Assembly: GCF_003334355.1 (NCBI RefSeq)
Contig: NZ_QOWP01000006.1
Direction: 5' to 3' (one strand)
Origin: Escherichia coli
GTDB taxonomy: Bacteria > Pseudomonadota > Gammaproteobacteria > Enterobacterales > Enterobacteriaceae
Length of the DNA stretch: 64,000 nt
A program made the position numbers and the translations under genes. Numbering within the stretch: the stretch's first letter is position 1; each line of letters begins with the position of its first letter. The notes under the pieces are model-generated. The model was not told the DNA's origin. It worked only from the letters and a program-made list of their open reading frames with translations, and did not search any database. Positions 5,250 to 49,624 of this stretch are shown one piece after another.

Positions 5250-5291
5250 GTCATACCACTCGCCTGATTATTTTTAGCTATGTTGGATTTT

Positions 5292-5318
5292 GCCACGGTT
5301 TATACCGTGGCTTTTTTT
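5292..5318 (+). terminator. Rho-independent terminator of allDCE operon
   Basis: GCCACGGT-TTAT-ACCGTGGC hairpin followed by TTTTTTT. Confidence 0.7.
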
Positions 5319-5326
5319 GTAACATT

Positions 5327-5431
5327 GCCTGATGCGCTTCGCTTATCAGGCCTACATGATCTCTGCAATATATAGAATTTGCGCGATTTTCAGGAAGGAT
5401 ATAGTACTCATGCCGCATCCGGCATGAGTAC
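5327..5431. repeat. REP element plus a 12-bp-arm perfect palindrome between allE and glxK
   Basis: GCCTGATGCGCTTCGCTTATCAGGCCTAC REP-like unit; AGTACTCATGCC-GCATCC-GGCATGAGTACT palindrome at 5402-5431. Confidence 0.6.
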
Positions 5432-18378: not shown

Positions 18379-18441
18379 TGGGCGGTATTCTGAAACGGCG
18401 ATTGTCGTGAGAACAGAATGGTTGCACCAGAATACAGATAT

Positions 18442-18478
18442 AAAAAAACCGACATGACAGTCGGTTTTTTTATTTTTT
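18442..18478. terminator. Bidirectional rho-independent terminator (selU on +; candidate sRNA on -)
   Basis: AAAAAAA-ACCGAC-ATGACA-GTCGGT-TTTTTTTATTTTTT; A-tract before and T-tract after the hairpin. Confidence 0.75.
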
Positions 18479-18530
18479 CCGCCCAAGACTTGGTGGTTCC
18501 GGGCAGAAATGAAACAGTCCTCATCTAGCA
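18442..18530 (-). ncRNA. Candidate antitoxin sRNA (~88 nt); its 5' end is antisense to a 16-nt element that recurs in the toxin leader
   Basis: Minus-strand promoter (-35 TTGAAT, 17-bp spacer, -10 TATAAT) puts the start near 18529-18533; transcript begins with the reverse complement of CAGTCCTCATCTAGCA (18515-18530) and ends at the bidirectional terminator. Confidence 0.4.
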
Positions 18531-27520: not shown

Positions 27521-27928
27521 TCACCCTGCCCGATGATGACAGCAGCCGGAGAGATTTTCGATAATCGGGCAGTCGGCGCTGTCATCGCCAGGGCAGGCAT
27601 TCGCCAGTGCCAGCAGCTGGTCGCGCATGGATTGCAGCTCCTCAATGTGTCGTTCGATCTCCGCCACCTTCTCCAGCGTGCGCCGTTTGACGTCGGCGCT
27701 GTGCCGCTGCGGGTCGTTAAACAGATTCACCAGCTCGCCGCTCTCTTCCAGGTTAAAGCCCACCTGCCGTGCCTGGCGCAGTAAGGTCAGTTCGTTGAGA
27801 TGCTGCTGCGTGTAGGTGCGATAACCGTTTTCGCTGCGCATCGGCGGCGTCACCAGCCCCTTCTCTTCATAGAAGCGAATGGCTTTGCTAGTCAGGCCGG
27901 TAATTTTTGCTACATCGCTGATGTTCAT
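27521..27928 (-). CDS. cueR: MerR-family copper-responsive regulator CueR (135 aa)
   Basis: [25 protein letters not shown]... and C-terminal [10 protein letters not shown] metal loop. Confidence 0.95.
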
Positions 27929-30280: not shown

Positions 30281-30471
30281 CTTTTGTTAACTCCTTTTTA
30301 TAGATGCGGGAGGTAATTCCTCACCCCGGTGCCGATTTTCAGGCATCCTGATTTAACTTAGCACCTGCAACTTAACTACAGGAAAACAAAGAGATAAATG
30401 TCTAATCCTGATGCAAATTGAGCCAATTTTTTAATCTTTACGGACTTTTACTCGCCTGGTTTATTAATTTC

Positions 30472-30502
30472 TTGACCTTCCCCTTGCTGGAAGGTTTAAC
30501 CT
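30472..30502 (+). promoter_or_regulatory. copA promoter with CueR operator (-35 TTGACC, 19-bp spacer with ACCTTCC-N7-GGAAGGT dyad, -10 TAACCT)
   Basis: MerR-type 19-bp-spacer promoter read directly; dyad at 30475-30495. Confidence 0.85.
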
Positions 30503-30541
30503 TTATCACAGCCAGTCAAAACTGTCTTAAAGGAGTGTTTT

Positions 30542-33046
30542 ATGTCACAAACTATCGACCTGACCCTGGACGGCCTGTCCTGCGGTCACTGCGTTAAACG
30601 CGTGAAAGAAAGTCTTGAACAGCGCCCGGATGTGGAACAAGCGGATGTGTCTATCACTGAAGCGCACGTTACCGGGACTGCCAGTGCAGAACAGCTGATC
30701 GAAACCATCAAACAAGCGGGTTATGACGCATCTGTAAGCCACCCAAAGGCTAAACCGCTGGCGGAGTCATCAATCCCGTCGGAAGCACTGACAGCGGTTT
30801 CTGAGGCGCTTCCGGCAGCGACCGCCGATGACGATGACAGCCAGCAGTTGCTGCTGAGCGGCATGAGCTGCGCCAGCTGTGTCACCCGCGTACAAAATGC
30901 GCTGCAAAGCGTACCGGGCGTCACTCAGGCACGGGTAAACCTGGCGGAGCGTACTGCGCTGGTGATGGGCAGTGCCTCCCCACAAGATTTAGTGCAGGCG
31001 GTGGAAAAAGCGGGCTACGGTGCGGAAGCGATTGAAGATGACGCTAAACGCCGCGAGCGCCAGCAAGAAACCGCCGTAGCTACGATGAAGCGCTTCCGCT
31101 GGCAGGCAATTGTTGCACTGGCTGTGGGTATCCCGGTAATGGTCTGGGGGATGATCGGCGATAACATGATGGTCACCGCTGACAACCGCAGCTTGTGGTT
31201 AGTTATCGGCCTGATAACCCTGGCAGTGATGGTTTTCGCCGGCGGCCATTTTTACCGCAGTGCATGGAAAAGCCTGCTGAACGGTGCAGCGACGATGGAT
31301 ACGCTGGTGGCGCTGGGAACGGGTGTGGCGTGGCTCTATTCGATGAGCGTCAACCTGTGGCCGCAGTGGTTCCCGATGGAAGCGCGGCATCTTTACTATG
31401 AAGCCAGTGCGATGATTATCGGTCTGATTAATCTCGGCCATATGCTGGAAGCGCGCGCACGTCAGCGTTCTTCTAAGGCGCTGGAGAAATTACTCGATTT
31501 AACCCCACCGACGGCGCGAGTGGTCACCGCAGAGGGTGAAAAAAGCGTGCCGCTGGCGGAAGTTCAGCCAGGGATGTTACTGCGCCTGACGACCGGCGAT
31601 CGCGTGCCGGTAGATGGCGAGATTACCCAGGGCGAAGCATGGCTGGATGAAGCGATGCTGACGGGCGAACCAATCCCACAGCAAAAAGGCGAAGGCGAAA
31701 GCGTCCATGCCGGGACAGTGGTACAGGACGGCAGTGTGCTGTTTCGTGCCAGTGCGGTTGGCAGCCATACCACGCTGTCACGGATCATTCGCATGGTGCG
31801 CCAGGCCCAGAGCAGCAAGCCAGAAATCGGTCAGCTGGCGGATAAAATCTCAGCCGTATTTGTACCTGTGGTGGTGGTGATTGCGCTGGTCAGTGCGGCA
31901 ATCTGGTACTTCTTTGGTCCGGCACCGCAAATTGTTTATACCCTGGTGATTGCCACCACGGTACTGATTATCGCCTGTCCGTGTGCGCTGGGGCTGGCGA
32001 CGCCGATGTCGATTATTTCCGGCGTCGGGCGGGCGGCTGAGTTTGGCGTGCTGGTGCGGGACGCCGACGCGCTGCAACGCGCCAGTACACTCGATACCGT
32101 CGTGTTCGATAAAACCGGGACGCTGACCGAAGGGAAGCCGCAGGTTGTCGCAGTGAAAACGTTTGCTGATGTTGATGAAGCGCAGGCATTGCGTCTGGCG
32201 GCGGCACTGGAGCAAGGTTCCAGCCATCCGCTGGCACGGGCGATCCTCGATAAAGCAGGTGATATGCAGCTGCCGCAGGTCAACGGTTTCCGCACATTGC
32301 GCGGGCTGGGCGTGAGCGGTGAAGCTGAAGGTCATGCGTTATTGCTGGGCAATCAGGCGTTGTTAAATGATCAGCAAGTCGATACTAAAGCGATTGAAGC
32401 CGATATTTCAGCTCAGGCATCGCAAGGGGCAACGCCTGTGCTGCTGGCGGTTGACGGGAAAGCGGTAGCCCTGCTGGCAGTACGCGATCCGTTGCGTAGT
32501 GATAGCGTGGCGGCGCTGCAACGCCTGCATAAAGCGGGATATCGTCTGGTGATGTTGACCGGGGATAACCCAACCACCGCCAATGCGATCGCCAAAGAAG
32601 CCGGGATTGATGAGGTGATAGCCGGGGTGCTGCCGGACGGTAAAGCCGAAGCGATCAAACGTCTGCAAAGTGAAGGACGTCAGGTGGCAATGGTGGGCGA
32701 CGGCATTAACGATGCGCCAGCGCTGGCCCAGGCAGATGTCGGCATTGCAATGGGCGGCGGCAGTGATGTTGCCATTGAAACCGCGGCGATTACCCTGATG
32801 CGCCATAGCCTGATGGGCGTTGCGGATGCGCTCGCTATTTCCCGCGCAACGCTGCGCAACATGAAGCAGAACCTGCTCGGTGCCTTTATCTACAACAGCA
32901 TCGGTATTCCGGTCGCCGCCGGTATTTTGTGGCCGTTTACTGGAACACTGCTTAACCCGGTAGTTGCCGGAGCGGCAATGGCGCTCTCGTCGATTACCGT
33001 AGTGAGTAACGCCAACCGGTTGCTGCGGTTTAAACCGAAGGAATAA
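30542..33046 (+). CDS. copA: Cu(I)-translocating P1B-type ATPase CopA (834 aa)
   Basis: Two N-terminal GxxCxxC metal-binding domains, [16 protein letters not shown] motifs. Confidence 0.97.
30742..30754 (+). other. copA: Programmed -1 ribosomal frameshift site giving 70-aa CopA(Z) copper chaperone
   Basis: Slippery heptamer C CCA AAG at 30742-30748 (codons 68-69); -1 frame reads CCC AAA GGC TAA. Confidence 0.8.
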
Positions 33047-33103: not shown

Positions 33104-33238
33104 GCCGGATGCGGCGTGAACGCCTTATCCGGCCTACGGTTCAGGCACAAGTTTGTAGGCCTGATAAGACGGGTAAGCGTCGCATCAGGCAATGGTGCTC
33201 GGATGCCGGATGCGGCGTGAACGCCTTATCCGGCCTAC
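33104..33238. repeat. BIME cluster: three REP units in alternating orientation between copA and ybaQ
   Basis: GCCGGATGCGGCGTGAACGCCTTATCCGGCCTAC twice, flanking an inverted GTAGGCCTGATAAGACGGGTAAGCGTCGCATCAGGC. Confidence 0.85.
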
Positions 33239-33739: not shown

Positions 33740-34534
33740 ATGGATCTGTTGTACCGGGTAAAAACGCTTTGGGCCGCGCTGCGCGGTAATCATTACACCT
33801 GGCCTGCCATCGATATCACCCTCCCCGGCAATCGCCATTTTCATCTGATTGGCAGTATTCATATGGGTAGCCACGATATGGCTCCCCTGCCCACCCGTTT
33901 GCTCAAAAAGCTCAAAAACGCCGATGCGCTGATCGTCGAGGCGGATGTTTCCACCAGCGATACGCCTTTTGCTAATTTGCCTGCCTGCGAGGCGCTGGAA
34001 GAGCGCATTAGCGAGGAGCAACTCCAAAACCTGCAGCACATTAGCCAGGAGATGGGCATTTCTCCCTCACTCTTTTCTACCCAACCGCTGTGGCAAATCG
34101 CGATGGTTCTTCAGGCGACGCAGGCACAAAAACTGGGGCTGCGGGCAGAATACGGTATCGATTACCAGCTATTGCAGGCGGCGAAGCAACAACATAAACC
34201 CGTGATTGAACTGGAAGGGGCTGAAAACCAGATTGCCATGTTGCTCCAGCTCCCTGACAAAGGACTGGCGCTGCTGGACGATACGCTGACCCACTGGCAT
34301 ACCAACGCACGGTTGCTGCAACAAATGATGAGCTGGTGGCTGAATGCACCGCCGCAAAATAATGATATAACGCTGCCCAATACGTTCAGTCAGTCGCTGT
34401 ACGATGTGCTGATGCATCAGCGAAATCTCGCCTGGCGGGATAAATTACGCGCCATGCCGCCGGGGCGATATGTGGTCGCGGTCGGTGCACTACACCTGTA
34501 TGGAGAAGGGAATTTGCCGCAAATGTTGCGCTAA
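33740..34534 (+). CDS. ybaP: TraB-family protein YbaP (264 aa)
   Basis: 264-aa ORF divergent from ybaQ. Confidence 0.85.
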   Translation: MDLLYRVKTLWAALRGNHYTWPAIDITLPGNRHFHLIGSIHMGSHDMAPLPTRLLKKLKNADALIVEADVSTSDTPFANLPACEALEERISEEQLQNLQHISQEMGISPSLFSTQPLWQIAMVLQATQAQKLGLRAEYGIDYQLLQAAKQQHKPVIELEGAENQIAMLLQLPDKGLALLDDTLTHWHTNARLLQQMMSWWLNAPPQNNDITLPNTFSQSLYDVLMHQRNLAWRDKLRAMPPGRYVVAVGALHLYGEGNLPQMLR

Positions 34535-34616
34535 AAAAATGGCCAATATCGCTATTGGCCCGTCAAAGAGGAATTTCATTTTTTTATTATTATGCCGTCA
34601 CTTTAAGCGACGGTGT
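34533..34616 (-). ncRNA. chiX: ChiX (MicM/SroB) Hfq-dependent sRNA, ~84 nt
   Basis: Minus strand reads ACACCGTCGCTTAAAGTGACGGCATAATAATAAAAAAATGAAATTCCTCTTTGACGGGCCAATAGCGATATTGGCCATTTTTTT, matching recalled ChiX; ybaP-ybaK intergenic as in K-12. Confidence 0.85.
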
Positions 34617-40292: not shown

Positions 40293-40376
40293 GTAGGCAT
40301 GATAAGACGCGCCAGCGTCGCATCAGGCATCGAGAGCCAAATGCCAGATGCGGCGTGAACGCCTTATCTGGCCTAC
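40293..40376. repeat. REP pair between convergent ybaL and gsk
   Basis: GTAGGCATGATAAGACGCGCCAGCGTCGCATCAGGC and GCCAGATGCGGCGTGAACGCCTTATCTGGCCTAC. Confidence 0.8.
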
Positions 40377-47692: not shown

Positions 47693-49624
47693 TCAAATGG
47701 GGCGGATACTGTCTTCATCCAGCTCCGCATCGAAGAATCGACGCAGGGTCTGAATATTATTATCCGCAATAATGGACTCGCGCGCCTGCGCAAGTTTTTC
47801 TTCGTATATCGCCTGACGCCATTCCAGCGGCGTACGCACCGCGGGATTATCATCTTCAACGATAGTCAGTTCAACCGTTGAACCTTTTAACGTGCTCAAC
47901 GCTTCAGCCAGTTTTTGCTGTGCACCGCGGTTGTTCAAATGCCGCTGAGAGGTGCGCAAATGCAGACATACTGCGTTGTCGCTCTCCTCTTTCCAGGCAT
48001 TTAAGGCCACCTGTTCGACCAGTTTTGGTAGCGAAAGTTGGCTAACCTGTGCCGCCCACGCGTCGCGCTCAATGGCTTCTGCCGCCAGCTTCGCCGCCAG
48101 TTCCGGCGTTTTTTCATGTTCCAGCGCTTTTTTCAGCGCCTTCGGCGTGGCGACCACTTCTTTTTGCTGCATCACCGGAGTGGTCGCCTTCCAGCGATAC
48201 GCTTCTTTTTTAGCTGGCGCTTTTTCCAGCGCCGATGGCACCGGACGCGCCTGAACGCGATCGGTGACCGAAGCCAGTCTTTCCAGCGCAGCGTTATTCA
48301 CCGGCCGCGCGCGGGTAGCGGCTGCCGGTTCACTCTTTTTTGCTTTGGTTGCTCCCTGCACGCGCTGCAACTGCTGGCGCGCCGCCAGCACCTGGCTGGT
48401 GGTTTCCGGGAGCGGTACAGTCGGAGCCTGCTGCGGCGCTGATTGCGGTTGCGGCGGCACCTGGGTTGGCGTCATTACTGCCGTTGGTGCGACAGGTGCA
48501 AAGGACTGGCGTGGCACTTCTGGCTCAGGCAGCGGCATACGCGGATGGAATGCCAGCGCGCGCAGCAGCGTCATCTCAACGCCCATGCGGCGGTCCGGCG
48601 CATACGGTAATTCTTTGCGACCAATCAACAGCGTCTGATAGTAAAGCTGAATATCCGTCGGCGGTATGGTGCGCGCCAGTTCACGCATCCGCAGCTCGAT
48701 GGCGGCCATGTCGTTGCCAAGTGCAGCAGGCGAAAGTTGTACCATCGCAATACGATGCAACAGACCGAGCATTTCCACCAGCAACGCTTCCCACTCGATA
48801 CCACGGGCAGCGGCTTCATTAATCAGCGCCATTACGCGCTCGCCGTTGGCCTCGACCATCGCTTCAACCAGCGACAGCGCCTGATCGTCGTCAAGCGTAC
48901 CCAGCATCGCACTGACCGCCTGGGTTGAAACCTGGCCGTCACCGCTGGCAATCGCCTGGTCGGTCAGACTTAAGGCATCTCGCAGGCTGCCTTCAGCGGC
49001 GCGCGCCAGCAATTGCAACGCCCGCGGCTCGTGAGCGATATGTTCTTCGTTGAGGATGTGCTCAAGCTGATGGCGAATTTGCTCGACATCCAGCGCCTTG
49101 AGATGAAATTGCAGACAGCGTGACAAAATCGTCACCGGCAATTTCTGTGGATCGGTCGTCGCCAGCAGAAACTTAACGTGCTCCGGCGGCTCTTCAAGGG
49201 TTTTTAACAGTGCGTTAAAGCTGTGGCGCGACAGCATATGCACTTCGTCGATCAGATAAACTTTGAAACGACCACGCGCCGGAGCGTACTGGACGTTATC
49301 CAGCAGGTCGCGGGTATCTTCAACTTTGGTGCGCGAGGCGGCGTCGATTTCAATCAGATCGACAAAGCGCCCCTGCTCGATTTCACGACAGTTATCGCAC
49401 ACGCCGCACGGCGTCGCGGTAATGCCGGTTTCGCAGTTTAGCCCCTTCGCCAGCAGTCGGGCGATAGAGGTTTTTCCGACGCCACGGGTGCCGGAAAAAA
49501 GATAAGCATGATGAATACGCCCTAACGACAAGCCGTTCGCCAGTGCGGTCAGCACATGTTCCTGGCCGACGACGTCAGCAAAGGTTTGTGGGCGCCATTT
49601 TCGGGCTAAGACCTGATAACTCAT
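47693..49624 (-). CDS. dnaX: DNA polymerase III tau subunit DnaX (643 aa); gamma made by frameshift
   Basis: AAA+ Walker A GTRGVGKTS; 643 aa. Confidence 0.97.
   Translation of the reverse strand: MSYQVLARKWRPQTFADVVGQEHVLTALANGLSLGRIHHAYLFSGTRGVGKTSIARLLAKGLNCETGITATPCGVCDNCREIEQGRFVDLIEIDAASRTKVEDTRDLLDNVQYAPARGRFKVYLIDEVHMLSRHSFNALLKTLEEPPEHVKFLLATTDPQKLPVTILSRCLQFHLKALDVEQIRHQLEHILNEEHIAHEPRALQLLARAAEGSLRDALSLTDQAIASGDGQVSTQAVSAMLGTLDDDQALSLVEAMVEANGERVMALINEAAARGIEWEALLVEMLGLLHRIAMVQLSPAALGNDMAAIELRMRELARTIPPTDIQLYYQTLLIGRKELPYAPDRRMGVEMTLLRALAFHPRMPLPEPEVPRQSFAPVAPTAVMTPTQVPPQPQSAPQQAPTVPLPETTSQVLAARQQLQRVQGATKAKKSEPAAATRARPVNNAALERLASVTDRVQARPVPSALEKAPAKKEAYRWKATTPVMQQKEVVATPKALKKALEHEKTPELAAKLAAEAIERDAWAAQVSQLSLPKLVEQVALNAWKEESDNAVCLHLRTSQRHLNNRGAQQKLAEALSTLKGSTVELTIVEDDNPAVRTPLEWRQAIYEEKLAQARESIIADNNIQTLRRFFDAELDEDSIRPI
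48301..48354 (-). other. dnaX: dnaX programmed -1 frameshift cassette (A AAA AAG, downstream stem-loop, upstream AGGGAG)
   Basis: Plus strand shows CTTTTTT at 48335-48341; palindrome CCGGCCGCGCGCGGGTAGCGGCTGCCGG at 48301-48328; -1 frame gives ...KKE then UGA. Confidence 0.85.

Follow-up and report, generated by a model that had tools for sequence, protein, structure and literature searches.

We asked whether copA in this Escherichia coli genome encodes a second, shorter protein by programmed −1 ribosomal frameshifting (−1 PRF), as had been proposed from the sequence of the surrounding 64-kb stretch of DNA (hereafter the window), and which elements of the sequence would carry such a signal. 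The mechanism, which produces the 70-aa protein CopA(Z), is attributed to Meydan et al. (2017, Mol Cell 65:207) and Drees et al. (2017, Mol Microbiol 106:635). The gene itself was assigned by its match to the copA equivalog profile NF007952, which scored 1745.7 bits against a curated cut-off of 1316 for the open reading frame at 30542..33046, as expected of a copA orthologue. The following features of the gene and of its putative frameshift cassette are referred to throughout.

30542..33046, plus strand: copA zero-frame coding sequence, encoding an 834-aa Cu(I)-exporting P1B-type ATPase (ORF list, translation and NF007952 match)
30542..30753, plus strand: CopA(Z) reading path of 70 aa, in the zero frame as far as AAG, with a −1 slip at the heptamer, then GGC and TAA (translation)
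30581..30592, plus strand: codons of the CGHC metal-binding motif (C14–C17) of the first metal-binding domain, MBD1 (translation; inside the HMA match)
30742..30748, plus strand: slippery heptamer C CCA AAG (sequence and translation)
30749..30754, plus strand: 6-nt spacer from the heptamer to stem S1 (coordinates of heptamer and S1)
30751..30753, plus strand: stop codon TAA of the −1 frame (translation from 30742)

Positions 30740..30756 read CAC CCA AAG GCT AAA CC, where CAC is codon 67, CCA codon 68 (30743–30745) and AAG codon 69 (30746–30748), such that the heptamer is made up of the last base of codon 67 together with codons 68 and 69 and lies in the X XXY YYZ phase of −1 PRF sites. The frame that starts at 30742 reads CCC AAA GGC TAA (P K G stop), and the predicted −1 product is M1..H67-P-K-G, 70 aa long with HPKG at its C-terminus. 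Its single HMA domain (PF00403, residues 8–62, E = 1.4 × 10−13) has the CxxC motif at C14/C17, so that MBD1, CxxC and the length of 70 aa, as expected of CopA(Z), were all found by translation and domain search. The original prediction had placed the heptamer at codons 68–69 in phase in copA, had followed it with GGC TAA to a 70-aa product ending in PKG, and had described this product as comprising the first metal-binding domain, all of which our translation and domain search bear out; only the end of the feature, given as 30754, was one base too far, as the TAA ends at 30753. Downstream, the 6-nt spacer falls within the ~5–9 nt that separate a slippery site from a stimulatory stem-loop or pseudoknot, and it is followed by two predicted, interleaved stems of H-type topology, S1 and S2.

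The heptamer taken alone was not enriched over chance, as CCCAAAG occurred eight times on both strands of the window compared with 8.76 ± 3.0 expected from shuffles of the 64 kb. Of the eight copies, that of copA alone combined X XXY YYZ phase, a position inside a long genuine ORF and a −1 stop three codons from the heptamer start. Because the frequency of the heptamer is at chance level, its significance has to come from context and conservation rather than from the heptamer itself.

Conservation was assessed at the scale of the species and among relatives. Positions 30641..31000 were 100% identical to E. coli K-12 MG1655, in agreement with the claim that the site is intact, and the laboratory strain has the same gene with the heptamer at codons 68–69, GGC UAA and the 70-aa product. 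Over the 601 bases of 30400–31000 we counted seven differences from MG1655, three of them upstream of the −35 element of the copA promoter and four synonymous (codons 28, 31, 32 and 33). None touches a known element, and the 70-aa peptide and the CueR promoter are identical. Given this identity, the 70-aa product is that of K-12, as are all the cis elements that have been studied there. Synonymous destruction of the heptamer reportedly abolishes the 70-aa product. Across complete E. coli genomes, the 601 bases were found, annotated as copA, in 5423 of 5426; the 95-nt cassette at 30736–30830 was 100% identical in 5321 of these 5423, with the weakest match differing only at 30820 and 30822, both 3′ of S2, and the 32-mer around the heptamer (30734–30765) was exact in 5376 of 5426. 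Overall, the copA frameshift element has been kept intact in some 99% of E. coli genomes. About ten complete genomes contained the copA region and lacked a 28-nt exact word within the 32-mer at 30734–30765; in these, the heptamer, the stop or the 5′ arm of S1 may be altered by substitutions.

Among relatives, we assembled 104 unique enterobacterial copA 5′ regions. Sampling was made independent of the site by scanning metagenome contigs for a DNA motif 160 nt upstream, and genome-derived and protein-fragment-derived copA loci were added. A scan of genome contigs with full-length CopA was dominated by hits to the universal P-type ATPase motif and yielded only three Enterobacterales; it was replaced by the protein-fragment look-ups and the metagenome DNA pattern. 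CCCAAAG was in phase at the end of MBD1 (codons 67–72) in 101 of the 104 regions, and every one of these 101 had a stop (TAA or TGA) as the third −1 codon. The three apparent losses of the site were rejected as frame artefacts of indel-ridden assemblies, a group that among the fragment-derived loci comprised L089, L093, L105, L154, L155 and L207; all three carry CCCAAAG and the stop behind upstream indels, which brings heptamer and stop to 104 of 104. The zero-frame residues around the site were variable, with H, S, R, F, D or L before it and A, P or S followed by K, N, D or E after it (the pairs AK, AN, AD, AE, PD, PE, SD, SE, PK and PN), yet the pattern NNC CCA AAG NNT RAN was invariant, such that codon 67 always ended in C, codon 70 always ended in T and codon 71 always started with RA. 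An invariant nucleotide pattern despite variable residues indicates selection on the −1 reading and not on the protein.

Synonymous variation, assessed as pairwise synonymous difference among 66 Enterobacteriaceae-type sequences of equal register, was suppressed over both the heptamer and the region downstream. The difference was 0.43 over codons 24–66, fell to 0.0007 over codons 67–71 and was 0 in codons 72–73, 79–81, 83–85 and 89–92, compared with 0.17–0.70 in the loop codons 74–75, 82, 86–88 and 93. The aligned sequences show the imprint of purifying selection, which has acted on the heptamer and stop as well as on both stems. The arms of the stems are as follows.

30755..30760, plus strand: S1 5′ arm CCGCUG, pairing with 30792–30797 (zero synonymous variation in codons 72–73)
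30778..30786, plus strand: S2 5′ arm GUCGGAAGC, pairing with 30808–30816 (zero synonymous variation in codons 79–81)
30792..30797, plus strand: S1 3′ arm CAGCGG, pairing with 30755–30760 (zero synonymous variation in codons 84–85)
30808..30816, plus strand: S2 3′ arm GCUUCCGGC, pairing with 30778–30786 (zero synonymous variation in codons 89–92)

From these pairings we infer an H-type pseudoknot formed by S1 (30755–60/30792–97) and S2 (30778–86/30808–16). Pairing was counted on a 67-sequence alignment (A2), in which 100% of S1 cells and 93.7% of S2 cells were paired, S2 having an invariant CGG/CCG core of three pairs that never vary. Taken as a whole, S1 and S2 were 96.2% paired, compared with 18–48% when partners were slid by 1–3 columns, and the S2 3′ arm stayed paired across differences in the length and sequence of loop L3. 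Compensatory changes were found at two positions of S1, where C-G is replaced by U-A in 15 sequences (a U-G intermediate occurs once) and by A-U in two; a U-A pair at 30758/30794 occurs naturally, in sequences of the Pantoea type. As the 15 sequences with U-A appear to form a single clade, the number of independent events behind this covariation is probably only about three, including a G-C to C-G flip in Photorhabdus S2; shuffle controls likewise overstate significance because the sequences share ancestry. The energies calculated for the separate stems were −9.2 kcal/mol for S1 (6 bp) and −14.2 kcal/mol for S2 (9 bp). A copA pseudoknot with stems S1 and S2, variants of both stems and ribosome stalling feature in the portion of PMC6182138 that deals with this site.

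Other foldings of the region found less favor. The nested minimum free energy (MFE) fold was unremarkable (z = −1.2), as expected since nested folding cannot model pseudoknots, and its outer helix (30759–64/30822–27) was E. coli-specific, with 47% of cells paired, which is the level of the slid controls, and was rejected. A third helix, UCA/UGA at 30767–69/30789–91, was paired in 93.5% of cells and showed neither compensatory change nor nearest-neighbour stabilisation, and we regard it as unsupported. Loop codons 76–78 (UCA UCA AUC) and 83 (CUG), which sit in L1/L2 (30761..30777 and 30787..30791), also had low synonymous differences, of only 0, 0.07, 0.03 and 0; the UCA/UGA mini-helix is unconvincing as the cause, and a tertiary contact or a constraint of another kind may be responsible.

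Upstream of the gene, the original prediction had placed an intact CueR operator next to the site, which was confirmed by a perfect inverted repeat identical to that of K-12.

27521..27928, minus strand: cueR, encoding the 135-aa Cu(I)-responsive MerR-family activator of copA (ORF and NF007590)
30472..30502, plus strand: promoter PcopA, with −35 TTGACC (30472–77), a 19-bp spacer and −10 TAACCT (30497–502) (sequence; K-12 identical)
30475..30495, plus strand: CueR box, ACCTTCC-N7-GGAAGGT, with perfect 7-nt arms (inverted-repeat reading)

The box overlaps the −35 element by 3 bp, ends 2 bp from the −10 element and lies inside the 19-bp spacer. The position of the CueR box relative to −35 and −10, together with a 19-bp spacer as hallmark of MerR-type promoters, is described in PMC8169799, and the core CCTTCC-N7-GGAAGG in both PMC8169799 and PMC1526738. 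With this dyad, the long spacer and a cueR gene (308.6 bits for NF007590 against a cut-off of 244; annotated as such in the identical strain MLI023K1), the region has what is expected of a CueR-regulated MerR-type promoter. PcopA was not called by a generic sigma-70 scan, because its 19-bp spacer exceeds the 16–18 bp limit of that scan. Gene order (cueR-ybaT-glsA-copA-ybaQ) was as in E. coli.

We conclude, with a probability of about 0.95, that the locus is the programmed −1 frameshift cassette of E. coli copA in its canonical form, yielding CopA(Z), with the shifting itself taken from the literature. The section of PMC9548414 on this gene describes efficient −1 frameshifting in E. coli copA with support from ribosome profiling and refers to Drees et al. 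as independent confirmation, while copA products of 70 aa, compared with 834 aa for the full protein, are given in a passage of PMC5009743, and an efficiency of ~0.5 is quoted in one of PMC9375231. That this is the known CopA(Z) mechanism, as had been claimed, is therefore supported by identity with K-12, by the literature and by the comparative signal of selection. The site is already known and is ordinary in being identical to that of the laboratory strain. For annotation, this reading means that copA here encodes two proteins, where automatic annotation lists one. The comparative data provide sequence-only support for the copA frameshift signal, and the stems could serve as the starting point of an RNA family model.

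In mechanistic terms, Cu(I)-bound CueR would activate PcopA and ribosomes would translate MBD1 until tRNA-Pro on CCA and tRNA-Lys on AAG could re-pair one base back, on CCC and AAA, following the X XXY YYZ rule and the literature. According to PRF rules and published work, the slip would be stimulated by the H-type pseudoknot, which lies 6 nt downstream and would sit at the mRNA entrance, and the nascent chain is described as a further stimulant. Shifted ribosomes would then decode GGC and stop at UAA, releasing the 70-aa HMA-domain protein CopA(Z), for which the literature gives a function as soluble Cu(I) chaperone, and unshifted ribosomes would go on to produce the 834-aa pump.

A short MBD1 protein could also derive for the most part from a short copA transcript of its own or from proteolysis of CopA, with the heptamer playing a minor part. 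A contribution at the transcript level has indeed been claimed, as the citing passages of PMC9548414 and PMC7558416 credit Drees et al. 2017 with ‘differential transcript formation’ in addition to frameshifting. Neither a short transcript nor proteolysis needs an in-phase heptamer with a −1 stop, however, and both of these were kept in 104 of 104 relatives, where synonymous freedom was lost; our terminator/promoter scan found no terminator-like site within the cassette or just 3′ of it, and the ribosome profiling referred to in the copA section of PMC9548414 supports frameshifting. We consider this explanation unlikely. A shift at the level of RNA, through transcriptional slippage on CCC or AAA, is the least probable of the explanations that we considered, to the point of being negligible. 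For slippage during transcription to be productive, homopolymer runs of about 7 or more are required, and the runs here are only 3 nt long, whereas a conserved pseudoknot at 6-nt spacing is a signature of ribosomal −1 PRF.

It is also very improbable, if somewhat less so than slippage, that heptamer and stop arose by chance and that their conservation reflects protein constraint on the MBD1–MBD2 linker combined with codon bias. In favor of this, CCCAAAG was no more frequent in the window than expected by chance, the linker is conserved at the protein level in its motif PK..PL..S..PSEALTA, and E. coli prefers the codons CCG and CUG. Protein constraint would nevertheless have to account for flanking residues that vary while the bases of codons 67, 70 and 71 are fixed, and for a complete lack of synonymous variation in the stem codons of Ser, Pro, Leu, Thr and Ala, compared with 0.26–0.7 in the intervening loops. 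Compensatory pairs cannot arise from protein constraint, and none of the 104 sequences was a relative with the same motif and freely varying synonymous sites. Programmed frameshifting on a conserved RNA signal remains the reading that we prefer.

Among known systems, E. coli dnaX resembles copA in being a chromosomal −1 PRF site at which tRNA-Lys slips on AAG, the −1 frame soon ends in a stop and the shortened product is functional. It uses A AAA AAG, a Shine–Dalgarno-like upstream enhancer and a simple hairpin (Rfam RF00382), whereas copA has C CCA AAG and a pseudoknot and is without an Rfam family. The dnaX element is itself present in the window (RF00382, 96.8 bits, 48296..48360, minus strand; A AAA AAG at 48341..48335, minus strand), such that the window has both of these well-characterised chromosomal −1 PRF sites of E. 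coli, ~17.6 kb apart. At the protein level, CopA(Z) is like stand-alone CopZ/Atx1 chaperones in having ~70 aa, one HMA domain (PF00403) and CxxC, and solved homologues include 2roe, 3fry and 2l3m; unlike them, it has no gene of its own. Against the NCBIfam CopZ models NF047957, NF033794 and NF033795 it scored 60.7, 39.7 and 38.8, all below the respective cut-offs of 85, 95 and 91, and CopA(Z), which would work like a CopZ, is MBD1 of CopA and not a member of those CopZ families. Human ATP7B is an orthologous Cu-ATPase for which −1 PRF was proposed in the same 2017 paper as for copA. The part of PMC9548414 concerned with ATP7B attributes that claim to a fused-reporter artefact without sequence conservation, whereas the bacterial site is extremely conserved, both in the 104 relatives and at synonymous sites.

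A variant arrangement was seen in Photorhabdus caribbeanensis (L005, NZ_RCWB01000027.1, locus about 1900–2020), where copA has three HMA domains and the cassette follows the second of them, at codon 138. The site reads TCC CCA AAA TCT GAG, with CCC AAA ATC TGA in the −1 frame, such that the heptamer is C CCA AAA, with AAA in place of AAG. S1 is CCGCUG/CAGCGG, and S2 is ACCGGAAC/GUUCCGGU with the G-C to C-G flip. This sequence predicts a tandem two-domain product (MBD1–MBD2) of ~140 aa with SPKI at its C-terminus. A search of Rfam 15 over 30742..30816 of the window returned no copA family, whether the gathering threshold or an E-value threshold was applied, and alignment A2 could seed an Rfam family for the copA frameshift pseudoknot. 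The idea that the cassette is a distinct Enterobacterales RNA family, currently lacking an Rfam model and possibly including unreported variants such as a Photorhabdus two-domain chaperone, is a tentative one that we hold with low confidence; in the window itself nothing novel remains.

Among 70-odd CopA loci outside Enterobacterales, in-phase heptamers combined with an early −1 stop downstream of an HMA domain were not found with any consistency. Four distant loci (L008, L022, L027 and L057) had an in-phase A AAA AAA/G within an ‘(A)VKKAGY’ motif near the end of the HMA domain, with a −1 stop 3–5 codons on, and these heptamers are probably a by-product of the Lys-Lys motif. Further RNA elements in the window were matches to naRNA4/CssrE (REP-type) at 33158..33235 (both strands), directly 3′ of copA, and at 40296..40373 (minus strand), together with Rfam matches to sroB (34533..34616), STnc480 (5256..5322), ES036 (5348..5390) and AgrB (18440..18528), all four on the minus strand.
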